Shown in pieces: positions 9,103 to 60,775 of a stretch of DNA of 64,000 nt (positions are counted from its first letter, which is position 1; each line of letters opens with the position of its first letter). The stretch is from contig CBDETY010000003.1 of NCBI GenBank assembly GCA_965243025.1, positions 4,224,001 to 4,288,000 on the forward strand, written 5' to 3'. The notes under the pieces are model-generated. The model worked only from the letters and a program-made list of their open reading frames with translations. It did no database searches and was not told the origin of the DNA. Source of the stretch: Candidatus Latescibacterota bacterium. Its GTDB lineage: Bacteria > Latescibacterota > UBA2968 > UBA8231. A program made the translations under genes and the position numbers.

Positions 9103-10634
9103 ATGGTAGACCGCATCATTCAGCTGTCGCTGCACAACCGGCTGCTCATGCTGGTCCTGGGAGCGGTGGTGGTGGGGAGCGGATACTACAGCTACCGGCA
9201 GCTTCCGGTCGATGCCTTTCCCGACGTCTCCCCCAACCTCGTGCAGGTATTCACCGTCACCGAGGGTCTGGCCCCCGAAGAGATCGAAACCTACGTCACC
9301 TACCCCATCGAGACGGTGATGAACGGCCTCCCCGGCATCGAGAACATCCGTTCGGTTTCGAACTTCGGCCTCTCTGTCGTCAACATCTACTTCGAAGACG
9401 GAATGGATATCTACTTCGCCCGCCAGCTGGTCAACGAACGGCTTCAGGAGGCCCGGGAACAGATCCCGGAAGGGTTCGGCGAACCGGCGCTGGGGCCGAT
9501 TTCCACCGGTATGGGGCTGGTGCTCTTCTACTACCTCGAAGACACCACCGGCGAGCACTCGCTCGAAGAGCTGCGCACGATCCAGGACTGGCTGGTCAAG
9601 TTCCACCTGCAGACCGTTCCGGGAGTCACCGAGATCCTCGGCATCGGCGGCCACGAGAAGCAGTTTCACGTAGTGGTCGATCCCCACGCCCTTTTGCGCT
9701 ACGGGGTGACCCTGCGCGACGTCATCGAACAGATCGCAGCCAACAACCTCAACGTCGGCGCCCAGTTCATACGGAAGGACGCCGAGGAATACGTCGTGCG
9801 CTCGGTCGGCCTGGCCTCCACCGTGGCCGATATCGAGAACATCGTCATCAAGGCAGCGGACGGAACTCCCATCTTCCTCAACCAGGTAGCGGAAGTGGGC
9901 ATCGGAGGGGCAGTGCGGCGGGGGGTGCAGACCCGCAACGGTGTGGAGGAAGTGGTTGCCGGCATGGTGATAAAGCTCTTCGGCGCCAATTCCTCGACGG
10001 TGATCGAGCGGGTCGAAGCGAAGATGGAGGAGATCAACCGCATTCTTCCCGACGGAGTGCGGCTGGTCCCCTACTACGAGCAGAAGACCCTGGTGGCGGC
10101 CTGCGTGGCCACGGTCACGAACGCCCTGATTCAGGGTATCGTCCTGGTCACCCTGGTGCTGATCCTGTTCATGGGCAGCGCCCGGCCAAGCCTGGTGGTG
10201 GCCCTCTCCATTCCCTTCTCCGTCCTGTTCGCCACCCTCGGCATGCGCTGTTTCGGCATCTCGGCCAATCTCATGTCCCTCGGGGGCCTGGCCATCGCCA
10301 TCGGCATGATGGTCGACGGCACCATCGTCGTCGTCGAGAACGTCGACCGCATCCTGCGGCAGGCGGATGCCGGCGAGGGACGCGTCCAGGCCGTTGCCCG
10401 CGCCTGCGCCGAAGTCGGCCGTCCCATCGTCTTCGCCATCCTCATCATCATTCTCGTCTTCCTGCCCCTGTTCACCCTCCAGGGTGTGGAGGGAAAGACC
10501 TTCCGGCCCCTGGCCTACACCGTGGCCATGGCGATGCTGGGCTCACTGGTCTTCGCCCTGTTACTCGCCCCGGTGCTGGCGAACCTTTTGCTGCGCTCAC
10601 CCGGATCCGGGGGAGACGGGGCGCCGCGACGCGA
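9103..10634 (+). pseudogene. czcA: CusA/CzcA RND transporter, 5' half (interrupted)
   Basis: LPVDAFPDVSP, GMMVDGTIVVVEN, EGKTFRPLA; only ~510 aa before running into the element end. Confidence 0.93.
10627..10634. repeat. 8-bp target-site duplication CGACGCGA (left copy)
   Basis: Identical 8-mer at 59180-59187; both copies abut the inverted repeats. Confidence 0.93.
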
Positions 10635-11244
10635 GGGAATTATCTAGATAACTGCGCAAGGGAATTTTAGTGATCTCACCCGCGAAATTAAAGAAAATCT
10701 GGTATAATATAGTAGAGAAATTGCAGAGAAACGGACATCCTTCGTCCCACTGTAATAGCCGGGAGATGGGGGATGTCGACTGGCTGGCAATTCCACATGA
10801 TTGCATGCTGACCGGAGAAGCCTGCCAGATTGGCACCATGGATCGACCCCCACTCTGATCGAGGAGTGGATGCGCGAGCCCCCTGGGTCTACAAAGCCGT
10901 CGTTGAGGTGAGAAGGATCATTCCGTTTGGTCGACAAGATGGCAAGGGGCAAGCTGGATCTGATTCCGGATCGGGAAGGCCACTCGGATCGAGGAGGGAA
11001 CCGGGACTCTTGCCTGATCTGAGTCGGGGACTGGCAGCGGCATATCATGGCGTTCTCAAAGTCAGGCAGTCTGCATCCTGCGATCTATCCGGACTCGCAG
11101 GTACCTCCCCCTGAAGTCGGCACCGTGGATCGAAAGGCCGCTTTCTGATGGAGGAGAGGATGCGCGAATGCCCCGGGTCTGCAAAGCCGTCGTCGCCGAG
11201 GTGAGGAGGAAGTCATCCCGTTTGGTCGACAAGATGGCAAGCAG
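10635..11244 (+). repeat. Left terminal inverted repeat (610 bp)
   Basis: Reverse complement of 58570-59179; the ORF track gives identical mirror peptides at both ends; begins GGGAATTATCTAGATAACT. Confidence 0.93.
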
Positions 11245-11432
11245 GATGACTGAGGATTCCTCGGGTACAGCCTGAGCTCCAGGCGCAACAGGGGAGGCAG
11301 CCGGCAGGGATGTCGCCTTGCCGACCATTCGGCATGATTCGCCGCTTCCCTCCACCAGATGAGAATCGATTCACAGTTCCGCCGGCGATGCGCAAGACGG
11401 CAGGCACCGGCAGCGGGATGTCGACTTGCTGA

Positions 11433-12437
11433 CTATTCGAACAGCTTCGCCCTTTCCTTCGACCGGTGATGAGTGTAGGGTTTCGGAGGAACCTCCGTCG
11501 CCAGCAGATCCCGGTAGGTCAGCCGTTTCCTCATCATCCGCGCCGTCAGATACCTAATCCGCTCCTCGGGGTCCAGGTTGCGGATGTTGTGCTTGCCTGT
11601 GATCTCCTTGAGGTATCGGGGCAGATACTTGGGAGACACGTGGTGGTGGGTCCCGTATATCGTTCGCTTCGCCTTGGCCCAGAACGATTCCATGCCGTTC
11701 GTATGGACCTCCCCTCTGACGTATTCCTCCTTGTGGTTGACGGTGTCGTGTCTTCCCGGCCATTCGAAACCATCGCGAAAGGTCGGGGCATTGTCGCTGA
11801 AAAGGGTGCCCTCCGGGCGTACGTTTTCCTCGGCGAAGGGGAACACGGTCTCGCGTGTCTCATCAGGGACCACCTTGGAGGCCACGTCGCCGGTTTCCCG
11901 GCAGCGCACTCCGCTCACGGGGGTACTGCCATACCTCCATTTCCAGTGAAACTTCTTGTCGGCGTGCCTGTTTTTATCGTCTCCGGCGAACCAGGCTTGA
12001 TCTATCTCGGCCATGCTGCTGCCCAGCGGTTGGGGAACCGGCCAGGCTTCCCGGAAGCGGTGCAGCATGAACAAGGCCGACGAATACGCAAGGTCGAGGT
12101 CGCTCGCAAGCTGCCTGGCGCTGATTCCCTTCGGTCTGGATTCGTACAGGTGGACGCCGATGGCCCATTTCCGCAAGGGGATCTTGGAGTGGGACATTCC
12201 CCCTTCCGTGCGCACGCTGAAGCGCTTTCGACAGCCGCCGCACCAGTAGGGCATGGGCTTGCGGCCGGGGCATTCCGATACCCTGTCGGAGCGGCCGCAG
12301 CGCGGGCAGTATATGAATTCGGGCAGGCCGTCTACGGTCTTCCCCCATCTTTTCTCTTCGAACCATTTTTCTGCGGTTGCGTCATCTGGAAACATGCTGA
12401 ACAAATCAATTAACGAGATGCTTTTACCATTACTCAT
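11433..12437 (-). CDS. IS1595-family transposase (left arm)
   Basis: Zn ribbon CPRCG...WCGGC, HTH, EIDQ / FSDN / HTNGMESFW, HHVSPKYLPRYL. Confidence 0.92.
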   Translation of the reverse strand: MSNGKSISLIDLFSMFPDDATAEKWFEEKRWGKTVDGLPEFIYCPRCGRSDRVSECPGRKPMPYWCGGCRKRFSVRTEGGMSHSKIPLRKWAIGVHLYESRPKGISARQLASDLDLAYSSALFMLHRFREAWPVPQPLGSSMAEIDQAWFAGDDKNRHADKKFHWKWRYGSTPVSGVRCRETGDVASKVVPDETRETVFPFAEENVRPEGTLFSDNAPTFRDGFEWPGRHDTVNHKEEYVRGEVHTNGMESFWAKAKRTIYGTHHHVSPKYLPRYLKEITGKHNIRNLDPEERIRYLTARMMRKRLTYRDLLATEVPPKPYTHHRSKERAKLFE

Positions 12438-12652
12438 CCTTACTGACCTTCGGGCCGTGGAATACCGAACTGGAGACCTGCGGCCCTTACAAAAACGATG
12501 TGATTCACGCTCCCATGGCTGTCCTTTCGGTTTCAGTGGGATGGTGACTCTGCCGGAATGTCACCGACAGATGGGACTGGGGACCGGCCGTGGATCCTGC
12601 CCGGCTCCCGTTGCATGTGCCTATAGTGTATTCCGCTGGATTAAAAAAGCAA
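12438..12652 (-). promoter_or_regulatory. Transposase promoter (TTGCTT...TACACT) and conserved structured leader
   Basis: Homologous to 44043-44257, 45624-45830 and 57260-57464. Confidence 0.55.
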
Positions 12653-13486
12653 GTCGGCTTTCGGAGAATTCAAAAACCCCGTAATAGCGACGGTAAACTT
12701 TAGTTTCTGGAAGGGGAGGAGGGGGCGGCACGGAAGGGGAGGGCGAGGAGGTCGGCGGGGGGTGCAGGAAGGCCCGATTCAAGGGGGATGGGCATCCAGA
12801 CGATCCCCGGGGGCTGAAGCCGGGGTGTAGCGGTCCCCGGCAACCGGCGAAAACGGAGTCGCGCTACGAGGCGGAGAAGACCGGGGGTCTGCGGATAATC
12901 GAGAGGACGCGGAAGGAGGCGCTTCGGAGGGGCAAAGATTCTGAAGCGGTCAATCGCCGGGTTATCCGAAAGATTTCAGGATCGGCGGGTCGAGGTGCAG
13001 CTGCGGAACTACGAGGCGAGGGTATCCCGCAAGCTGGCGAACCGGCAGGCCGTGAGCTCCCCTGAGGGTCGACGCTGGGAAGAGGGTATTTTCCCGTAGC
13101 GTAGGGAATACAGAAGCCGACGATTCGGGAGGGATCCTCTCGTTGCCTTTGCACACCCCCCTTGGGAAATCGGCACGGTGGATCGGAGCCCCCCGGCTTC
13201 TGAACGAGGAGGGGGTCTCAGTCCGGGATCGGTGTTCCTGGGGGATTCAGGGAACAGGGTGTCGAGGGTGCCGGCTGCCCGGAACTACGAGGCGAGGGGT
13301 ATCCCCTTCCCTGAAAGCCTGGCGAACCGGCAGGCCGTAAGTGCCCCCTGGTACGGTCCTTGCAGGACTACGCTGCGAAAAAGGGGGTATTCTCCTGCGG
13401 AGAATACTGAATGGAGGCAGCGGGCAGCGGGATTGTCAAGAACGGTTTAAAGTTGACAGTTCCAACGGTTTAAAGTGGACACTTTT

Positions 13487-14314
13487 CTACTCCACGCGGC
13501 TGGATTCTGTCCGCGCATGTGTTCTCCTTCCGGTTGACGAGGGGTATCTCCGGTGGTGAGTCCGGACTGGCGACGATGCCGCAGGCGGTAGCTGTCCCCC
13601 CGGATGTTGATGGTGGAGGAGTGGTGTAACAAGCGGTCCAGGAGCGCGGTGGCCAGCACCGGATCGGGAAAGATCTCGTTCCAGGTGCCATAGCTCTTGT
13701 TGCTGGTCAGGATGATGGACTTGAGCGCTTCGTAGCGCTTGCTGACCACTTCGAAGAGGAAGGTGGCGTCCTGGCGCTCCAGGGGCATGTAGCCGACCTC
13801 GTCCAGGACCAGCAGGTCGGGTCGGGTCAGCGTCTGGAGCAGGACGGACAGCCGGTTCTTCTCGCGAGCGCTGCGGGAGCGGGTGACCAGATCGTGCAGG
13901 GTCAGGAAATAGACGCGGTGGCCGCGCTCGATGGCCTTGAGGGCCAGGCCGAGAGCCAGGTGCGATTTGCCGACCCCGGGCGGTCCGAGGAACAGGACGT
14001 TGGTCCCCTGGTGCAGGAAGCGCAGCGTGGCGAGCTCGTCGATGGTCTGTTTGGGCACCTGGGCCTGGGCGTGGAAATCGAAGCTTTCCAAGGTCCTGGT
14101 CGCGGCCATGCCCGACAGTCTCAGGTTGGTGGCCACCCGGCGCTCCGAAGCGGTGGACGCGCTCGCGGTTGAGGAGTTCATCGATCACTTCCACCGGCAA
14201 CTGCTGCTTTTTTTGGCCCTCCTCCAGGACCGTATCCAAGTCGGTGCGGGCGGCGTTCAGGTCGAGTATTTCCAGGCGTTCCTGCACGCGCTCGTAACTG
14301 ACGGTCGCGCTCAT
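13487..14314 (-). CDS. istB: IS21 helper ATPase IstB (apparently frameshifted near 14150)
   Basis: N-terminus MSATVSYERVQERLEILDL in one frame; GPPGVGKS, LLVLDEVG and LLDRLLHH in the 13447-14181 frame. Confidence 0.8.
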   Translation of the reverse strand: MSATVSYERVQERLEILDLNAARTDLDTVLEEGQKKQQLPVEVIDELLNRERVHRFGAPGGHQPETVGHGRDQDLGKLRFPRPGPGAQTDHRRARHAALPAPGDQRPVPRTARGRQIAPGSRPGPQGHRARPPRLFPDPARSGHPLPQRSREEPAVRPAPDADPTRPAGPGRGRLHAPGAPGRHLPLRSGQQALRSAQVHHPDQQQELWHLERDLSRSGAGHRAPGPLVTPLLHHQHPGGQLPPAASSPVRTHHRRYPSSTGRRTHARTESSRVE

Positions 14315-34543: not shown

Positions 34544-35536
34544 CTATTTGACCAGATCCCGATACAACAGCCGTTTCCCCACCATCCGCGCCACCAGGTC
34601 CTCCATCTGCTCGAGGGTGTCCTTGTCGCGGATGTTGTGCCGGCCGACGAATTCGTCGATGTACCGCTGCAGGTGCTTGGGGGACATGGAGTGATAGGTT
34701 CCCTTGTAGGCTCGCTTGATCATCGACCAGAAGCTTTCGATGCCGTTGGTGTGGGACCCATCGGTTGAGAACTGGCCTTTCGAGTGAATGACGAACTCGG
34801 ATTTTCCCGGCCACTTGAAATCCTTCAAGGCACTGGCCCCGTCGCTGTAGAGGGTGCCGTTTGCTCTCAGGTGCTTCCGGGCGAACGCCCTCAGAATGTC
34901 GGCAGTCTCTCCAGGAACCACGCTCGCGGCGACCTTGCCGGTTTTTCGGTCCTTCATGCCCACCACGATGGTTTTTCCCTCCATCCACCGTTCCCGCAGC
35001 CTCTTGTCGGCGTGCTTGTTGGCCTCCTTTCCGCCAAAATAGGCCTGGTCGATCTCGCCTCTCCTGCTTGAGAGCTTCTCCTGGTCCGACCAGGCCTCGC
35101 GGATGCGGTGGCCCATGAACCAGGCCGTTGCATGCGTTACCTGGAGGTCCCGGTGCAGCTTCATGCTGGACACGCCCTTGAGGCTGGACAGGTGCAGGTA
35201 GATGGCGATGACCCATTTCTGCAGGGGGACCTTGGAGTGGGACAGCACCGTTCCGGTGCGAACGCTGAAGCGCTTTCGGCAGTCCCCGCACCAGTAGGGC
35301 ATGGATTGTCGGTCGGGACATTCCGATATCATGCCGTAACAGCCGCAGTGCGGGCAGTGGATCTGCTTGCTCCACCGGGTTTCTTCGAACCAGCGTTCGG
35401 CCGCGATGTCGTCGGGGAACCTGGCGAACAGCTCGATCAGGGACAGGCCGTTCCGGTCGTTCCTTCCCGGCCCTTCGGGGACGAGCCCCCTGCCGGCCTT
35501 CGACCAGCGGCCCAGGAATCGTTTCAGTCTTTTCAT
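34544..35536 (-). CDS. IS1595-family transposase (central, divergent copy)
   Basis: CPHCG..WCGDC, EIDQAYFGG, LYSDG, HTNGIESFW, MSPKHLQRYIDEF; AAGGA RBS. Confidence 0.9.
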   Translation of the reverse strand: MKRLKRFLGRWSKAGRGLVPEGPGRNDRNGLSLIELFARFPDDIAAERWFEETRWSKQIHCPHCGCYGMISECPDRQSMPYWCGDCRKRFSVRTGTVLSHSKVPLQKWVIAIYLHLSSLKGVSSMKLHRDLQVTHATAWFMGHRIREAWSDQEKLSSRRGEIDQAYFGGKEANKHADKRLRERWMEGKTIVVGMKDRKTGKVAASVVPGETADILRAFARKHLRANGTLYSDGASALKDFKWPGKSEFVIHSKGQFSTDGSHTNGIESFWSMIKRAYKGTYHSMSPKHLQRYIDEFVGRHNIRDKDTLEQMEDLVARMVGKRLLYRDLVK

Positions 35537-36055
35537 GGTTTCCTTTCTGGTGAGAAGGGGAGGAGCGGGTTGTCGGGACCGATCCCCCCGCGCAGGCCGT
35601 TCCGTGACCCCATGGCAGGTTGAAAACGGCTGCAACGGGTACCCCCGCTGCCTCCCCACTGCCTTATTCAATTATATATATAGAGTCTCAAGCCCTTTCA
35701 TGGATCGAACCGCCCCGAGGCCCATGCACTGTCCGGCCTGCCGAGGTAAACCGTATGCAAGGTCGATGTCGTCTGTGGAAAGGCGCCGCCCGCGGCTTGG
35801 CCTGATCCCCAAAAACCTCTGGGAGGCCGGATTTCGGTGTCCACCTCTGTCCGTCCGTACCCGGTTCGATTCTGCCTGGCTGGATGCCCTCGCTTCCGAG
35901 CGCACGGCACGGGTGAGCCGCGATTCGACGCCTCCTGCGCGTCGGCAGTTCCTACGGGATCGACATGGACCGGGTTCTTCGGCAAGGGCAGACGATACGG
36001 CCTGACCGACCCCGGCCACGACCCTTCCGGTACCCGGACGGGAGAGGACTCAGAA

Positions 36056-41391: not shown

Positions 41392-41999
41392 TCGCAGCGC
41401 GACCCCGTTTTCGCCGATTGCCGGGAACAGACCTTTCCGGGGGATAGCCTTCTCCCCTGCCACGAATGGGGGGGACCCCTGACGTACCGGCGGGATCCGG
41501 TGGCGTGACGAGGTCAGGCTCGCTCTCCGCCTCCACCTCCTCTGTGGAGGGGTGGACATCCCGCTGCCCGCTGCCTCCATTCAGTATTCTCCGCAGGAGA
41601 ATACCCCCTTTTTTCGCAGCGTAGTCCTGCAAGGACCGTGCCAGGGGGCACTCACGGCCTGCCGGTTCGCCAGGCTTTCAGGGAAGGGATACCCCTCGCC
41701 TCGTAGTTCCGGGCAGCCAGCACCCTCGACACCCTGTTCCCTGAATCCCCCAGGAACACCGATCCCGGACTGAGACCCCCTCCTCGTTCAGAAGCCGGGG
41801 GGCTCCGATCCACCGTGCCGATTTCCCAAGGGGGTGTGCAAAGGCAACGAGAGGATCCCTCCCGAATCGTCGGCTTCTGTATTCACTACGCTACGGGAAA
41901 ATACCCTCTTCCCAGCGTCGACCCTCAGGGGAGCTCACGGCCTGCCGGTTCGCCAGCTTGCGGGATACCCTCGCCTCGTAGTTCCGCAGTTGCACCTCG
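41392..41999 (-). repeat. Inner inverted-repeat arm (right copy, uninterrupted)
   Basis: Reverse complement of 12991-15100 minus the IS21. Confidence 0.88.
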
Positions 42000-42621
42000 C
42001 CGCTCAGTTTCTGAATCTCCCAGGCACCCCGATCCGGACTGAGATCCCTCCTCGATCAGAAGCCGGGGGCCTACGATCCACGGTGGCTCTTCGGTCTACT
42101 TATTTGCGGCCCCTTGCGGCTTCGAAGGGGGCTGGACCAGACCCTCTTCATACCCTGATTCAAGGAGGTTAAATTACCCAATTTGGGTAAAATCAGAGCT
42201 CTTTGAGGTCCAGATCCATCGATGAGACGTGCTTCTGGCGATGCCGGCAGACTCCAGCCGTTTCGCAGGCCGTGTCCCCGGAAGATACGTCTGCCCTCTC
42301 TCTGATCGTCTTCGCGCCGAAATTACACCGCTGAGTATCTGCTGGAGGGACTGCCCCTGCGGTATTGGAGTTCGTCAGGTCCGGGCTCGGCCTGTGCAGC
42401 CCCACTCGTTCACCGTCCTTACCCTCCAACTCCGCCTGACCTGAGGGCATCCTTCAGCGTAATCGCATCCCCCCGGTAGCTGTCCTTCTTCACCGGCAGA
42501 CCCTGGAGCCCGGGTCGGGTCCTGAAGCCCCCGATTTCCACTACCGGGTGACTGTAAATCACGGATTCTCCCATCCTACTCAAGTACGGCGTCGGCCTCG
42601 TCGGCCGGCGCCTGATCAAAC

Positions 42622-44042: not shown

Positions 44043-44278
44043 TTGCTTTTTTAGTCTATCCAGGTACAATAGAGGCACATGCAACGGGAATCCGGCAGGA
44101 CCCACTGCCGCTTCCCCAGTCCCTTCTGCCGGTGCCACACCGACAGAGTCACATCCCACTGAAACCCGAAAGGACTGCCATGGGAGCGTGAATCACATCG
44201 TTTTGTAAGGGCCGTCTGGTTTCAACACGGTACTCCACGGCCCGAAGATCAGTAAGGATGAGTAATGGTAAAAGCATC
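44043..44278 (+). promoter_or_regulatory. Transposase promoter, leader and first 7 codons (MSNGKSI) of a truncated IS1595 transposase
   Basis: TTGCTT-16-TACAAT; ATGAGTAATGGTAAAAGCATC is identical to the start of the left-arm transposase. Confidence 0.75.
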
Positions 44279-44355
44279 GGGAATTATATACATAACTCAG
44301 CAGGTAATTTAAGTAATCTCCTCCGCGAATTTAAAGAAATTCTGGTATAACCATA
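44279..44355 (+). repeat. Internal IS1595-type end
   Basis: GGGAATTATATACATAACT...CCGCGAATTTAAAGAAATTCTGGTATAA is a diverged copy of the element terminus. Confidence 0.8.
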
Positions 44356-44699
44356 TGGAAAGAAAATGCAGAGAACCGGACTTCCCCTGTCCCACTGCTT
44401 TAGCCCTGAGACACGGAAGAATGCCAGATTGACCCCGTGGGATCGAAAAGGCCGGGCTCTGATGGAGAGAAACCGGGACTCCTGCCCTGATCTGATGTCG
44501 GCGACTGGCAACGGTTTCTGCATCGGGCATTTCCCCATCTCGGTTGACGGCTCACCTCGCTGACTGGATACGAGAATCCCCCCGGCACGTTTCACGTCAG
44601 ATCTCCCTGGAGGCCGGCACTGTGGATCGGAGAGCCTCCGCCTGCATCGAGCAACGGGAAGGTCCTTCAGGGACCAGGAGAGCATCCCTGCATCCGGGA

Positions 44700-45623
44700 T
44701 CAGGCGAGCAGGGTTGCCGTCGTTGATTTCACCTGGGGGTTCGTCATCCTGCTGACCTTTCGGAAGGGTTCGCCCTCTCTCCACCGATGATGAGTGTAGG
44801 GGGTCGGAGGGATCTCCGTCGCCTGCAGATTCCGATAGGTCAGCCGTTTCCTCATCATCCCTGCGGTCAGATACCTCATCTTCTCCTCGGGGTCCAGGCG
44901 ACGGATATTGAACCTCCCTGTTATTTCGTTGAGGTACCGGGGGAAATACTTGGGAGACAGGTGACGAAAGAGCTCGCGGATCGTTCGCTTCGCCTTAGCC
45001 CAGAACGATTCAATGCCGTTCGTATGCGCGTCTCCCCGGACGTATTCGCCGGAACTGTGATTTACGATTTCGTGCCTCCCCTGCCATCCGAAACCACGAT
45101 AGACCGTGACATAGCCATACCACCATTCGTGACCAAATTTCTTCTTGCGGTGCCTCTTCTTGTCGTCTCCGCCGAAATAGGCTTCGTCTATCTCGGCTAT
45201 CCTGCTGCGTAGCGGTTCGGGATCCGACCACCCTTCCCGGATGCGGTGCAGCAGAAACCAGGCCGTTTTCTGCGTCATGCCGAGGTCGCGGGAAAGCTGC
45301 ATGCTGCTGATTCCCTGCGGACGGGACAGGTCCAGGTGGATTGCGATGGCCCATTTCTGCAAAGGGACCTTGGAGTGGGACATCACCGTTCCGGTGCGGA
45401 CGCTGAAGTGGTTTCGACAGTCGCCGCACCAGAAGGGCCTGTGCGCGCGGTTGCGACACGGGGTTATCATGCCGAAGCATCCGCAGTGCGGGCAATACAT
45501 GGATTCGGGAAGGCCATCTACCGTCTTCCCCCATCTGAGTTCTTCGAACCATTTTTCTGCTGCTGCATCATCTGGAAGCATTCTGAACAAATCGATTAAC
45601 GAGATACTTTTGCCATTTTTCAC
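44700..45623 (-). pseudogene. IS1595-family transposase with internal deletion
   Basis: Paralog of the arm transposases, but it jumps GYVTV|YRGFGW and loses the second catalytic Asp region. Confidence 0.8.
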
Positions 45624-46449
45624 TTCCGATACCTTCGGGCCGTGGAATACCGAACTGGAGACCTGCGGCCCTTACCAAAACGATGTGATTCACGCTCCCA
45701 TGGCGGTCCTTTCGGGATGGTGACTCTGTCGGTACTCCCCGACAGAAGGAACTGGGGAAGCGGCAGCGGATGCTACCGGGTTTCCCCTCGATTTACCGTT
45801 ATTATACCTGGATACACTAAAAAAGCAAATCGGCTTTCCGGGCAATTCGGTAAATGCTCGTAAGGAAGGAGGGAAACTTTGGTTTCTGGGAGTGGAGGAG
45901 GCTTGCAGGAGTGGGGGAGCGAAGAGGTCGGCGGGGGGTGCAGGAAGGGGAGCCCGGTGAGCAGCGGTTCCCGGCAGTCGGCGGAAACGGAGGCGCGCTG
46001 GGAGGTCGAGACGGGAAGACGGGGGTCTCGGATATCGGGAGGAGGCTGAGGCTACGCGTTTGGGAGACGGCAATCCCGGGTGTTTACCCGGGAGGCTCAC
46101 GAAACTGGGCGTCTGTGATGGCGGTTACGGATGGGCTCTGGTGGCGATGTGCCTCGGCGCAAGGCCTTCGCCGATGATCAGGAGATCCTTGATCCCTAGG
46201 GGGTTCCATGCAGGCAGCATCGGAAAACGAGCGAGCCGCCGATTACCCTGGTTTTTGCCCCGTCCCATCGGGGTCAGCGGGAGGGGGATGTTGTGCTCGC
46301 TATCTATTCTTTCGCTTGCGTCTGCGTCGCCACAACCAAGAAAAAAACAGGGTATCCAAAACAACGAAAGCTATCAGGATGAGAATCCAATAATCCATCT
46401 TTTTCCTGCTTCCCCAACGGATGGTACTTCATGGCCGACGAGATCGCGG

Positions 46450-46598
46450 TTATCGGAGCCCTCCGCCCAGGCCCCGGGCAAACAGGCACATCTGCTCGAC
46501 GGTGTCGCAGTCCCGGATGTTGTGCCGTCCTTGGAACTCGTTCACGTATCGCTGCAGGTGCTTGAAACTCATGCGATGGAAGGTGCCGTGATAGCCCC
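46450..46598 (-). pseudogene. IS1595 transposase C-terminal remnant
   Basis: GYHGTFHRMSFKHLQRYVNEFQGRHNIRDCDTVEQM. Confidence 0.75.
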
Positions 46599-46742
46599 GT
46601 TATTATAGCATTGCCCAGAAAATCCGCAAAAAAAGATAAAGGTCCTGGACAAACGGACAGAGGTTGTCCTCTTGGCGGTTATCTTGTGGTATGGAAGTAC
46701 AGCCATCCGCATGGGCAGTGATGCCCAGAGGCGTGGAGGGGG

Positions 46743-51342: not shown

Positions 51343-51722
51343 TCCCCATTAAGGACGGGGAATTATGTACTTGACCGCACAAGCCTGGGGCCGGCACGGC
51401 TTGCAATGCCTCGCCAAAAACCGGGAAAGACTCGGAAACATCGGTCCCCGGCCTACTCAGGGTAGGAAAAACGGAGGTAAAGCTATGGGCTTGGCATTGG
51501 ACTACTACAGCAAGAGGAAATCTGGACCGCATACTGCAGGAGGTCCACCCGGCAGGTCGCCCAAGGTGTCCGCCTGCGTTTCACTGATCCAAACGTTCGT
51601 GCTGGTCGGTGTGTCGGTTCTCTCACAGGGTTGCTTGCCCGTCTTCCAGCAATACCAAGGCGCTAGGACGCAGGAGCCGGGTACGCTTGAATTCACGCCG
51701 AACGTCGCGACCGTGTCCTTCA

Positions 51723-52383
51723 AGCGCCGCTCGCATTGTCTTAGCACCGACCCGGAATTCGCCGCCAAAGCGGCCGACATCGTCGGCCTGTATCTCGACC
51801 CGCCGGACAACGCGGTGGTGGTGTGTGTCGACGAGAAACCGTCCACCCAGGCGCTGGAGCGCGCCCAGGGCTATTTGCGTCTGGCCCCGGGGTGCGGCGC
51901 TGAGCGGCTTCAGCCATCGCTACCAACGCCACGGCACCACGACCCTGTTTGCCGCCCTCGAGGTGGCCACCGGCCACATCAAGGCCGGGCATGCCAAGAG
52001 ACGCCGGCGCCGGGAGTTCCTCGAATTCATGAACGACGTGGTGGCCGCCTATCCGGCCGACCAGGCCCTCCATGTGATCCTGGACAACCTCAACACCCAC
52101 AAGCCCAAGCGCGACCGCTGGTTGGCGCGCCATCCCAACGTCCACTTCCACTTTACGCCCACCAATGCGTGCTGGCTCAACCTGATCGAAATCTGGTTCA
52201 GCATCCTCAGCCGTCGTGCCTTGCACGGAGCCAGCTTTACTTCGCCCCGACAGCTGGGCAACGCCATCGACGCCTTCATCGCCGCTTACAATTCCAAGGC
52301 ACACCCCTTCGAGTGGAAAAAAGAGAAGGTCTATCAGGGCCGGCTCCATGATACATGCGCGGAATTGTGCAATTAATCACTAG
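51723..52383 (+). mobile_element. IS630-family 3' fragment, frameshifted
   Basis: STDPEF..VCVDEKP, RHGTTTLFAAL, ILDNLNTHK, WLNLIEIWF; ends CACTAG. Confidence 0.85.
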
Positions 52384-56831: not shown

Positions 56832-57464
56832 CCCTTGCCTACGTCCTGAACTGAAATATCCTCCCCTTCCCCAAGGGGGTGTGCAAGGCACCGAGAGGAT
56901 CCCTCGTAGCGTAATCCGGCAAAGACCACGCCAGGGCCCACTCACGGCCTGCCGATTTCGCCAGCTTTCGGGATACCCTCCCCTCGTAGTACCGTAGCGC
57001 CACCTCGACCGTTCCCGAATCGCCCGTATCCCCGACGTAGCCGGGGCCTCCGAAGCGCCTCCTTCCCGATATCCGAATCCCGCTTCTTCTCCCCCTCGGT
57101 CTCGTAGCACCGACTCCGTTCCCCCGATTGCCGGGGACCGCTGCTCACCGGCTCCCCTTCCTGCACCCCCCTTCCCCCTCTCCACCCCCTCCCCCGCTCC
57201 CAGAAAACCAAAGTTTCCCGCCGCCCTTACGGGTGTTTTCGAACGCACTTGGAAGCCCGCTTTACTTTTTTATTTTCCCGATACATTAATCAATAGAGCG
57301 GGGACGCCGGCAGCATCCGCTGCCACCTCCCCCAGTTCCCTTCTGTCGGTGAGTACCGACAGATCACATCCCACCGAAAGGAATCCCATGGGAGCGTGAA
57401 TCACACTATTTGTTGAGGGCCGCTGGTCTCAAGTACGGTATTCCGCGGTCCGAAGGTAATCGGA

Positions 57465-58481
57465 GTGAAAAATGGTAAAAGCATCTCGTTAATCGATTTA
57501 TTCAGGATGTTTCCAGATGATGCAGCAGCAGAAAAATGGTTCGAAGAAGAAAGATGGGGGAAGATGGTAGACGGCCGGCCCGAATCCATATACTGCCCGC
57601 ACTGCGGATGCTGCGACAGGATAACCCCGTGTCGCAACCGCGCCCACATGCCCTTCTGGTGCGGCGACTGTCGAAACCACTTCAGCGTCCGCACCGGAAC
57701 GGTGATGTCCCACTCCAAGGTCCCCTTGCAGAAATGGGCCATCGGCGTCCACCTGTACGAATCCAGACCGAAGGGAATCAGCGCCAGGCAGCTTGCGAGC
57801 GACCTCGACCTGGCGTATTCGTCGGCCTTGTTCATGCTGCACCGCCTCCGGGAAGCCTGGCCGGTTCCCGAACCGCTGCGCAGCGGGATGGCCGAGATAG
57901 ACCAAGCCTATTTCGCCGGAGACGATAAGAACAGGCACGGCAACAGGAAGTTTCGCCGGAAATGGAGGTATGGCACTACCACCGTGAACGGAGTGCGCTG
58001 CCGCGAAACCGGCGACGTGGGCACCAAGGTGGTCCCTGACGTGACCCGCGAGACCGTGTTCGCCTGCGCAGAGGAACACGTAGGCCAGGGGGGCGCCCTT
58101 TTCAGCGACAATGCCCCGACCTTTCGCGATGGTTTCGGATGGCCGGGAAGACACGAAACCGTCAACCACAAGGATGAATACGTCAGAGGGGAGGTCCATA
58201 CGAACGGCATTGAATCGTTCTGGGCCAAGGCGAAGCGAACGATATACGGGACCCACCACCACGTGTCTCCCAAGTATCTGCCCCGATACCTCAAGGAGAT
58301 CACAGGCAAGCACAACATCCGCAACCTGGACCCCGAGGAGCGGATAAGGTATCTGACGGCGCGGATGATGAGGAAACGGCTGACCTACCGGGATCTGCTG
58401 GCGACGGAGGTTCCTCCGAAACCCTACACTCATCACCGGTCGAAGGAAAGGGCGAAGCTGTTCGGATGGCCAGGAAGATGA
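57465..58481 (+). CDS. IS1595-family transposase (right arm)
   Basis: EIDQ / FSDN / HTNGIESFW; C-terminal third near-identical to 11433-12437. Confidence 0.92.
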   Translation: MKNGKSISLIDLFRMFPDDAAAEKWFEEERWGKMVDGRPESIYCPHCGCCDRITPCRNRAHMPFWCGDCRNHFSVRTGTVMSHSKVPLQKWAIGVHLYESRPKGISARQLASDLDLAYSSALFMLHRLREAWPVPEPLRSGMAEIDQAYFAGDDKNRHGNRKFRRKWRYGTTTVNGVRCRETGDVGTKVVPDVTRETVFACAEEHVGQGGALFSDNAPTFRDGFGWPGRHETVNHKDEYVRGEVHTNGIESFWAKAKRTIYGTHHHVSPKYLPRYLKEITGKHNIRNLDPEERIRYLTARMMRKRLTYRDLLATEVPPKPYTHHRSKERAKLFGWPGR

Positions 58482-58569
58482 AAACCGCTGCCCGTTGCCT
58501 CCGGTCCGAACTGAGTCTGTGGATGGTAAGCGGGAACTCTTCTCGTATGGTCAGCAAGGCGACATCCCG

Positions 58570-59179
58570 CTGCTTGCCATCTTGTCGACCAAACGGGATG
58601 ACTTCCTCCTCACCTCGGCGACGACGGCTTTGCAGACCCGGGGCATTCGCGCATCCTCTCCTCCATCAGAAAGCGGCCTTTCGATCCACGGTGCCGACTT
58701 CAGGGGGAGGTACCTGCGAGTCCGGATAGATCGCAGGATGCAGACTGCCTGACTTTGAGAACGCCATGATATGCCGCTGCCAGTCCCCGACTCAGATCAG
58801 GCAAGAGTCCCGGTTCCCTCCTCGATCCGAGTGGCCTTCCCGATCCGGAATCAGATCCAGCTTGCCCCTTGCCATCTTGTCGACCAAACGGAATGATCCT
58901 TCTCACCTCAACGACGGCTTTGTAGACCCAGGGGGCTCGCGCATCCACTCCTCGATCAGAGTGGGGGTCGATCCATGGTGCCAATCTGGCAGGCTTCTCC
59001 GGTCAGCATGCAATCATGTGGAATTGCCAGCCAGTCGACATCCCCCATCTCCCGGCTATTACAGTGGGACGAAGGATGTCCGTTTCTCTGCAATTTCTCT
59101 ACTATATTATACCAGATTTTCTTTAATTTCGCGGGTGAGATCACTAAAATTCCCTTGCGCAGTTATCTAGATAATTCCC
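58570..59179 (-). repeat. Right terminal inverted repeat (610 bp)
   Basis: Ends AGTTATCTAGATAATTCCC; followed by the TSD at 59180-59187. Confidence 0.93.
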
Positions 59180-60775
59180 CGACGCGAAGGCTGGCTGATG
59201 CGACGCCTGGTGCCGGCGTACCGGCCCATGGTCGCCGGTTTCGTCGCCCACCGCTTCCGGGCCCTGGGTTCGGCCGGCATCCTTCTGCTCATCGGGCTGG
59301 CGGTCTTCCCGCGCCTCGGGTCGGAGTTCACCCCGGCCCTGCAGGAGGGGACCATGGTCCTGAGACTGACCATGGCTCCGTCGATCTCCCTCGAGGAGAG
59401 CACCCGCATCACCATGCTGGTGGAGCGCCGTCTGCTGAAAATCCCGGAAATCGCCGGGGCTGTCTCGCGAATCGGCCGCGGCGAGGTCGGCGCCCATACC
59501 GATCCGATCAACAGCGCCGAGATGTTCCTCCTGCTCGAGCCGAAGGACCAGTGGCGCCAGGCCGACGACCAGGAAGAGCTTCAGGAGACCATTCGCGCCG
59601 AGCTGGGGGAGATACCCGGTGTGCTGACCAACTTCACGCAGCCGATCGCCATGACGGTGGACGAGCTGCTCGAAGGGGTGCGGGCGGAGCTGGCCATCAA
59701 GCTCTTCGGGGACGACCTCGACCTGCTGAAACAGAAGGCGGACGAAATCGCCCGGGTGGTCGACACGGTTTCCGGGGCCGCCGACGTCCAGGTGGACCAG
59801 GTAGGCGGGGCCCCCCAGCTGCTGATCAGGGTCGACCGCCGGGCCATCGCCCGTTACGGCGTCAACGTAGCCGATGTTCAGGAAGTGGTTGAGGCGGCCG
59901 TCGGCGGTGAGATGGTCGGGCAGGTGTTCGAGGGGATTCGCCGCTTCGACATCCTGGTGCGTTTCGCCCCCCGATTCCGCAGCAGTCCGGAGGCCATCGC
60001 CCGGATCCTGGTCCAGTCCCCCATGGGCGTCCAGATTCCCCTGGTTCAGCTGGCCCGGATCGAAGAGGTGGTCGGACCGCGCCAGATCACCCGGGAAAAG
60101 AGCCAGCGCTTCATCACCGTCCAGTGCAACGTCACCGACCGGGATATCGGCTCCTTCGTCGAGGAGGCCCGGGAGGCGATAGATGGCCGGGTGGCGCTGC
60201 CGCCGGGCTACCTCGTGACGTGGGGGGGCCAGTTCCGACTGCAGCAGGAAGCCAACAAGCGGCTGGCGATAGTCGTGCCGATCACCCTCTTCGCCATCTT
60301 CCTGCTCCTGTTCTCCAGCTTCAACTCGCTGAAAAACGCGATTCTCGTCCTGCTCAACATTCCCCTCGCCCTCGTCGGCGGGGTGGTCGCCCTGTGGATT
60401 ACCGGACAGAACCTGTCCGTGCCCGCCTCGGTCGGCTTCATCGCCCTGTTCGGGATCGCCCTGGGAAACAGCATGGTGATGGTGACCTGCTTCAACCAGC
60501 TCGTCCGCGAGGGAGTCGACCTGGACGAAGCCTCGGTTCAGGGCGCATGCCTGCGGGTGCGGCCGGTGCTGATGACCGCCCTGACGACCGCCCTGGGGCT
60601 GCTTCCGCTGCTGTTTTCAAGCGGGACGGGCAGCGAAGTACAACGGCCGCTTGCCACGGTAGTCGTCGGCGGCCTCGTCAGCTCGACCGTGCTGACCCTG
60701 CTGGTTCTGCCGGCGCTCTACAAGTGGTTCGCCGTGCAGTTCAACCACGGAGAAGAGGAAAGTTCATTTGGCTGA
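59180..60775 (+). pseudogene. czcA: CusA/CzcA RND transporter, 3' half
   Basis: LGSEFTPALQEG, RVRPVLMTAL, GSEVQRPLATVVVGG; joins the 5' half as ..GAPRREGWLMRRLV.. Confidence 0.93.

Follow-up and report, generated by a model that had tools for sequence, protein, structure and literature searches.

A recurrent, probably structured leader upstream of IS1595-family transposase genes in a Latescibacterota bacterium

Few means by which insertion sequences restrain themselves are known. Structured leaders of transposase genes are among them, and a handful of cases (IS10, IS200 and ISPpu9) have been dissected. The transposase of IS200 is an HUH enzyme, IS110 elements use a DEDD enzyme, and an 8-bp target-site duplication is a trait of the IS1595 family. 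In IS10 the transposase mRNA is controlled by pairing between RNA-IN and RNA-OUT and by fold-back inhibition, the fold-back pairing acting on read-through transcripts that originate outside the element. Binding of Hfq at the ribosome-binding site of IS10 has been reported as well (PMC5006887). For IS200, the structure of the tnpA 5' UTR is described as repressing transposase expression and keeping transposition rare (PMC4513863), and the same UTR as being processed into regulatory RNAs and yielding a stable small RNA (PMC5435999; PMC12594629). [quoted passage not shown] The bridge RNA of IS110 is described as a structured RNA of about 180 nt from the non-coding end 5' of the recombinase gene, in elements without terminal inverted repeats; according to the same source, long non-coding ends were the lead to the bridge RNAs, and the small RNAs of ISPpu9 had first been read as regulators of expression (PMC11208160).

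Here we describe a segment of 175-190 nt that occurs four times in the window (the whole 64-kb stretch of DNA that was analysed), each time between a promoter-like site and the start of a transposase gene of the IS1595 family. The segment is likely a structured 5' UTR, and nothing stronger is supported. As an explanation, which we hold tentatively and at somewhat less than an even chance, we propose that it is a cis-acting structured 5' UTR that limits translation of the transposase, like the leaders of IS200 and ISPpu9, with which it shares no sequence. It would be a new and unrelated case from a barely studied phylum, in a clade whose relatives with located ends are compact.

As in IS200 of Salmonella and E. 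coli (IS200/IS605), a structured leader lies inside the element and precedes the transposase start. In contrast to the HUH enzyme of IS200 the elements here encode a DDE enzyme, and the two leaders have no sequence or Rfam similarity. IS200 also has the antisense RNA art200, whereas no conserved antisense promoter was seen at the leader here, the one promoter-like site being in copy c4 only, and sequestration of the ribosome-binding site, shown for IS200, is weakly predicted here. Where the ISPpu9 element of Pseudomonas putida has its genes for non-coding RNAs, on both sides of tnp, the element here has long non-coding regions, but the ISPpu9 enzyme is placed in IS110 by PMC11208160, whereas that of the element here is an IS1595 DDE transposase. 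Unlike in ISPpu9, the analysis here turned up neither an antisense RNA upstream nor, downstream, an RNA complementary to the leader; the one 8-9-mer in common is not conserved among the copies (by eye). IS10 resembles the brake proposed here in that a DDE transposase is restrained at the level of translation by RNA pairing at the ribosome-binding site. The IS10 pairing acts on read-through from outside, whereas the candidate anti-Shine-Dalgarno sequence here lies inside the element's own transcript, and there is no homology between the two. Finally, the IS110 bridge RNA has a similar place to the structured RNA candidate here, at the 5' non-coding end of an insertion sequence. In contrast to IS110, the element here has a DDE transposase, a family-typical right inverted repeat and an 8-bp duplication, and loops complementary to target and donor, as in the bridge RNA, were not found in the leader. 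The long non-coding ends do recall IS110, where such ends hid an unexpected RNA function.

A covariance model (R1) was built from the four window copies and then searched back for copies. The leaders and the transposase genes that follow them are listed below.

12438..12620, minus strand: leader copy c1, 5' UTR of an intact transposase gene (R1 match 12430-12625, 198.9 bits)
44075..44257, plus strand: leader copy c2, a solo leader (R1 match 44070-44265, 197.8 bits)
45624..45800, minus strand: leader copy c3, before an internally deleted transposase gene (R1 match 45615-45801, 203.2 bits)
57290..57464, plus strand: leader copy c4, 5' UTR of an intact transposase gene (R1 match 57284-57473, 191 bits)
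11433..12437, minus strand: transposase gene of c1, 334 aa, intact (Pfam DDE_Tnp_IS1595, 3.9e-30)
57465..58481, plus strand: transposase gene of c4, 338 aa, intact (Pfam DDE_Tnp_IS1595, 4.2e-30)
44700..45623, minus strand: transposase gene of c3, 307 aa, with an internal deletion (PF12762, 3.8e-16; protein alignment)

A sequence-only reading of the window had already placed four copies at these coordinates, and R1 recovers all of them, at 191-203 bits and in agreeing positions. All four share a 20-nt core, CCATGGGAGCGTGAATCACA, without mismatch (0.02 matches on average in shuffles of the window), and an 18-nt core, AUGGGAGCGUGAAUCACA, is invariant in the six leaders now known, which include two from related genomes and in which about 25% of the positions differ elsewhere. 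The observed segment is real and beyond chance. As the window copies are paralogous copies of one mobile element, their four-fold recurrence alone is no evidence of function.

In all six known copies the leader lies immediately 5' of the start codon and on the same strand as the transposase. The assignment of the transposases to IS1595/ISXO2, made earlier from the letters, is confirmed by an ISXO2-like DDE domain (PF12762), with E values around 1e-30 for c1 and c4; the domain is also present in a further gene, c5 (2e-33). The zinc ribbon PF12760 is listed for c3 only, at 23.6 bits against a cut-off of 25.4, and CPxCG...WCGxCR cysteine pairs are visible in all transposase copies. The same reading had put the copies ahead of four IS1595 transposase starts, which is correct for their position at the starts, but intact genes follow only c1 and c4. 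The c3 transposase is without some 45 residues, the region of the second catalytic Asp among them (protein alignment). Behind the c2 leader, seven transposase codons (44258-44278) remain before the c3 element cuts in with its right end at 44278/44279, the junction with GGGAATTAT being at 44279. Including the two elements from other genomes, one frameshifted (L001) and one in at least three pieces (L030), the transposase genes of four of the six leader-bearing elements are dead.

Two further loci in the window touch on this family. The c5 gene (34544-35536) is a fifth and more distant transposase gene, 51% identical; its product is extended at the N-terminus and lacks a C-terminal tail. Its leader of about 130 nt (35537-35680, minus strand) is unrelated to the one studied here, to which no homology was found by covariance-model search, and is 84% identical over 99 nt to positions 2248-2340 of L034, the leader of an Aminicenantes MAG locus; its purine-rich site is able to pair locally with CCUUCU (by eye). 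A sixth promoter-like box together with the first leader bases (TGCTATAATAACGGGG) is fused to a C-terminal fragment of an IS1595 transposase at 46489-46650 (minus strand), and this is a deletion derivative upstream of c3.

Upstream of the leaders, the following sites were read from the sequence.

12625..12652, minus strand: promoter-like TTGCTT-16-TACACT, upstream of c1
44043..44070, plus strand: promoter-like TTGCTT-16-TACAAT, upstream of c2
45801..45828, minus strand: promoter-like TTGCTT-16-TATAAT, upstream of c3
57261..57288, plus strand: degenerate promoter-like TTTACT-16-TACATT, upstream of c4

A promoter had been assigned to three of the copies, and TTGCTT-16-TAYAMT is indeed found before c1, c2 and c3. 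The -35 box of the TTGCTT sites is weak, with three of six positions matching TTGACA, and a consensus promoter scan called none of the listed sites in the two scanned regions, which cover c2, c3 and c4. The weak -35 box and the missing consensus call count against a leader transcribed from this site.

The distribution of the leader among relatives was assessed by scanning representative genomes once with the transposase alignment, which yielded 34 related loci. The leader model matches two of these, the two closest, both from Latescibacterota MAGs: L001 (leader 155.8 bits, transposase 58% identical) and L030 (119.1 bits, 47% identical). A second model, R2, made from all six leaders (c1-c4, L001 and L030) and run without filters, matched none of the other 32 loci, in which the transposase is 36-48% identical over the best segment; the best hit was a 27-nt hairpin of 12 bits. 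In compact relatives, the left end is 57-67 nt from the ATG where repeated copies located it (two groups, six loci), and it carries the inverted repeat typical of the family, GGGAATTATATAC, as in L005/L006 and L017/L020. Since the relatives with located ends are compact, the 170-nt leader is an addition specific to one subclade, and judging from the sequences it appears confined to a small, mainly Latescibacterota, subfamily of IS1595. The leader DNA had no match in plasmid and phage collections, nor did the transposase in a tblastn search of plasmids at 1e-40. About 300 nt upstream of the L001 leader there is a fragment of a group II intron (L001 1834-1971; Rfam group-II-D1D4-4, 94.5 bits); as no intron signal is present in the window copies, it was treated as a neighbour of L001 and a link with the leader was dropped.

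That the leader is undescribed, as had been supposed, is supported by searches of Rfam and of the literature. At the gathering threshold, Rfam 15 has no match in the whole 64-kb window. A scan at E<=10 around two copies gave nothing above 21.2 bits, and E-value scans around c2/c3, c4 and L001 gave nothing relevant to the leader; the best sub-threshold match that overlaps a leader is Fibrobacter-1, at 20.7 against 77.9 bits and on the opposite strand. A full-text literature search found no RNA associated with IS1595 or ISXO2.

The leader is able to fold into four or five hairpins, and the same hairpins recur in separate minimum-energy folds. The four stems named in the sequence-only reading (GGCAG/CTGCC, CTGTCGG/CCGACAG, TCAC-CCC...CCGAAAGG...GGG-GTGA and GGGCCG/CGGCCC) are present both in the sequences and in the RNAalifold consensus. 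Compared with dinucleotide shuffles, the single-sequence z-scores of the six leaders are -1.2, -2.8, -3.8, -2.3, -2.5 and -2.7 on the sense strand, and -0.5, -1.5, -1.8, -3.2, -1.2 and -0.5 on the antisense strand. The consensus folding energy of the alignment is -41.1 kcal/mol, against -22.6 +/- 3.5 for column shuffles (z = -5.2), and none of 200 shuffles is as low. These values support the proposed structured leader to the extent that it folds better than chance both in single sequences and as an alignment.

The distribution of variation over the fold points in the same direction. Varying columns make up 27 of 82 paired and 67 of 95 unpaired columns, and gap columns 10 of 82 and 28 of 95, respectively. 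As this comparison is partly circular, it was repeated with structures predicted from single sequences, in which stems are depleted of variation for four of six references (odds ratio 0.39-0.42, p = 0.004-0.012); among control windows from the coding region, 2 of 48 reached p<0.02. The antisense strand of the alignment also folds better than shuffles (z = -4.4), which leaves room for an explanation by palindromes at the DNA level. G.U cells (11) outnumber A.C cells (5), favouring the sense strand, that of the transposase.

These observations have to be weighed against the main rival explanation, which we regard as unlikely but serious: the leader would have no RNA function and be neutral non-coding filler of a decaying family, for instance an old insertion into a formerly compact 5' end, with hairpins that are incidental or palindromes in the DNA. 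A folding energy far beyond that of shuffles argues against such filler, as does the avoidance of stems by variation and indels in four of six references, compared to the 2 of 48 control windows. In addition, the same 170-nt architecture is found in three genomes, although the relatives with a located left end are compact.

Conservation, on the other hand, speaks for neutrality. The leader had been presented as conserved, which is not supported: between the window copies and L001, identity is 0.74-0.81 over the leader, compared with 0.77-0.80 for the four-fold degenerate sites of the transposase genes, so that leader identity is no higher than at neutral sites and conservation alone shows nothing. 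Between c1 and c4 the leaders are 0.72 identical, and the coding sequences 0.91-0.93. Conservation is the same at codon positions 1, 2 and 3 (0.76/0.79/0.74 between c4 and L001, 0.93/0.91/0.91 between c1 and c4), which means that almost no purifying selection is visible, despite the intact frames of c1 and c4; by this measure these copies drift almost neutrally. Such flat codon-position identities and a leader identity equal to that of four-fold sites are in line with filler in a decaying family, as are the four dead carrier elements out of six and the good folding of the antisense strand.

Significant covariation, too, was not found among the six leaders, as expected for neutral filler, though six sequences this close give too little power. 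Pairing cells amount to 95.0% versus 94.6% in shuffles, with 182 of 500 shuffles reaching the observed value, and changes on both sides of a pair occur in 1 of 41 pairs, a count reached by 271 of 500 shuffles; 25 of the 41 pairs are invariant. The compensatory change that had been noted in the last stem concerns its seventh pair, which is U-A in c2 and C-G in c4 as described, but is a C.A mismatch in the other four of the six sequences.

Returning to the reading that we prefer, in which the structured 5' UTR limits translation, transcription from the element's own promoter-like site would give the transposase mRNA a 5' untranslated leader of about 170 nt. Its 5' hairpin domain, in which GGGA..UCCC encloses GGCAG..CUGCC, would be followed by the CUGUCGG hairpin and then by an interrupted hairpin capped by a C-GAAA-G tetraloop, and the GGGCCG hairpin would finish directly at the purine-rich GAAGG, which lies 8-9 nt upstream of the start codon. 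In this way the folded leader could keep translation of the transposase low, either because the ribosome-binding region is occluded, possibly by a weak CCUUC:GAAGG helix that closes the whole junction, or because the time for translating the nascent transcript is shortened; both routes may combine.

The CCUUC:GAAGG helix is part of the consensus and of several leader-only minimum-energy folds, and L030 has a one-base deletion on each of its strands, leaving CCUC/GAGG. When the folded sequence is extended by 40 nt into the coding region, GAAGG is unpaired with a mean probability of 0.42, 0.95, 0.83 and 0.48 in c1 to c4 (four of the six leaders were computed), and among these four long-range pairing of GAAGG occurs, at a probability of 0.3, in c4 only. 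Robust sequestration of the Shine-Dalgarno sequence by a long-range helix did not hold up, as ensemble folding leaves GAAGG 0.42-0.95 unpaired. A multi-hairpin junction with invariant unpaired stretches beside the start region could also suggest a riboswitch or an RNA thermometer, either of which would expose the ribosome-binding region when a ligand binds or the temperature changes. We consider this very unlikely, in view of the lack of an Rfam riboswitch match and the weakness of the closing helix; an alternative conformer was not established either, and riboswitches are not known to us from DDE transposase genes.

Two other roles for the leader were considered and rejected. No terminator-like site was called between leader and start codon in the three copies scanned (c2, c3 and c4), which speaks against an intrinsic terminator or attenuator there; the U-run after the third hairpin begins 6 nt from the helix (by eye). 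A small protein encoded in the leader was rejected because the copies differ in the length of the interrupted hairpin by amounts not divisible by three, and because their frames differ; the antisense reading frames of the leader differ between copies as well. There is a conserved mini-ORF in the leader, AUG GGA GCG UGA, preceded by GAAAGGA.

The leader might instead be an RNA bound by protein, such as a transposase operator for autoregulation or cis-preference, or be processed into a trans-acting small RNA like that from the IS200 tnpA 5' end; from the sequences we judge this improbable. The invariance of the 18-nt core in all six leaders, together with the exact 20-nt core of the window copies, would fit such a role, although an invariant 18-mer among six related sequences is possible by chance descent. 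A U-rich single-stranded linker after the third hairpin, and the processing into regulatory RNAs reported for the tnpA 5' UTR of IS200 (PMC5435999; PMC12594629), are likewise compatible with it.

The transposase itself provides a further point in favour of protein binding. The leader-bearing transposases have a common basic C-terminal tail ending in ...THHRSKERAKLFE. The tail, ATEVPPxPYTHHRSKERAKLFE, is encoded at 11433-11500 and at 58415-58481 and also occurs among the proteins P0005-P0034. A protein search gave about 30 clusters at least 50% identical to c1, most of which carry the tail; it is absent from c5 and, in the few clusters with readable ends, from the tier of at most 45% identity. 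In contrast, a second form of the tail, WREGEPFRK..., is a frameshift of the first in which the DNA is still similar (by eye), which suggests that what is conserved at this end of the gene may be the nucleic acid, and this counts against the protein-binding reading.

The ends of the carrier element bear on a different set of functions. The 3' regions and the duplicated target are given below.

58482..59179, plus strand: non-coding 3' region of c4, about 700 nt, up to the right inverted repeat ...ATAATTCCC
10635..11432, minus strand: non-coding 3' region of c1 and right inverted repeat
44279..44699, minus strand: shortened 3' region of c3 and right inverted repeat
10627..10634, plus strand: 8-bp target duplication CGACGCGA, left copy
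59180..59187, plus strand: 8-bp target duplication CGACGCGA, right copy

The right ends of c1, c3, c4 and L001 are sharp, all finishing in ...ATAATTCCC, which read inward is the inverted repeat of the family. The right end has the form GGGAATTAT(C/A/G)TA in these four and matches the inverted repeats of the relatives L005, L017 and L021. Positions 10635-11244 of c1 are 100% identical to 58570-59179 of c4. The 3' region of c4 contains a terminator-like hairpin (59067-59081), some 100 nt short of the element's end, and an inward extended -10 box, TGGTATAAT, is found on the opposite strand of the right-hand region. That the 3' region is a gene was rejected, since its ORFs appear to be of low complexity and since three homologues differ by gaps of 1, 2 and 8 bases, which interrupt any single frame. 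No similarity was found between the 3' and 5' regions of the element.

At the other side, no convincing left inverted repeat was found in any of the four window copies within 1.2 kb upstream by local alignments and mismatch scans; isolated matches at 9 of 13 positions lie 0.7-0.8 kb upstream of the window copies, and L001 has a 9/13 candidate at 2255, 30 nt upstream of its leader. The carrier element was thus not found to have matching inverted repeats at its two ends. A C-rich stretch of 150-250 nt upstream is common to the window copies. The non-coding ends are unusually long for the IS1595 family, the left one measuring 220 nt or more and the right one roughly 700 nt.

The arrangement of c1 and c4 indicates that the right end is nevertheless functional. 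The two are inverted with their right ends outward, and CGACGCGA is located immediately outside both. The flanking ORFs, 9103-10647 and 59198-60775, are halves of one AcrB-type RND efflux gene (Pfam ACR_tran 1-492 and 511-1020), and these halves are in frame once the insert and one copy of the repeat are removed (by hand). The outward right ends, the duplicated CGACGCGA and the split RND gene together identify 10635-59179 as a composite transposon of 48.5 kb, mobilized by way of two right ends; both the right end and the 8-bp duplication are therefore functional. Mobilization on two right ends is consistent with a defective left end. The 8-bp duplication is found for the composite, at the outer ends of c1 and c4, and was not seen for a single copy: searches at c3 and, by eye, at L001 gave no target duplication.

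With a left inverted repeat found in none of the four window copies, the leader might be thought to act as a guide-like RNA in transposition, as the IS110 bridge RNAs do, and to make up for the missing repeat; the unusually long non-coding ends recall the feature that was the lead to bridge RNAs (PMC11208160). We consider this extremely unlikely. The DDE transposase, the normal right inverted repeat and the 8-bp target duplication argue against it, the loop sequences do not track ends or targets, and stretches of the leader identical or complementary to the right end or flank are at most 5-7 nt long, a length reached by 24-100 of 100 shuffles. As complementarity of the leader to the right end or the flanks does not go beyond chance, nothing suggests a guide role. 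It is also conceivable, but highly improbable, that the long non-coding ends (the 170-nt leader, and the right region of about 700 nt with its inward extended -10 box) encode RNAs that are working parts of transposition, for example a transposase-bound RNA that replaces or licenses the missing left end. If true, this would be the first DDE insertion sequence of the IS1595 family with an RNA cofactor.

Several other features of the window were observed. The 3' region of c4 contains two direct repeats of about 120 nt, 81% identical (58573-58695 and 58868-58982), which are likewise present in c1 (10832-10946 and 11119-11241) and twice in L001, and the motif GTCAGCAAGGCGACATCCCGCTGC recurs near them. 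Identity between copies is a mosaic: c4 is 97-100% identical to c3 over approximately 57622-57710 and to c1 over 57711-57830 and 58188-58428, reaching 100% over 58570-59179, with values of 70-90% elsewhere. As far as can be judged from such a pattern, it suggests gene conversion among the copies.

The window is dense in insertion-sequence remnants. Inverted repeats at 12975-13433 and 41558-42015, 94-100% identical, adjoin an IstB-type helper gene of IS21 (13447-14181). The sequence GGGGAATTATGTAC, one mismatch from an IS1595-type inverted repeat, occurs just before overlapping ORFs at 51357-52376 (plus strand), one of which has a DDE_3 (IS630-like) domain, placing an IS1595-type repeat beside a transposase of another family.
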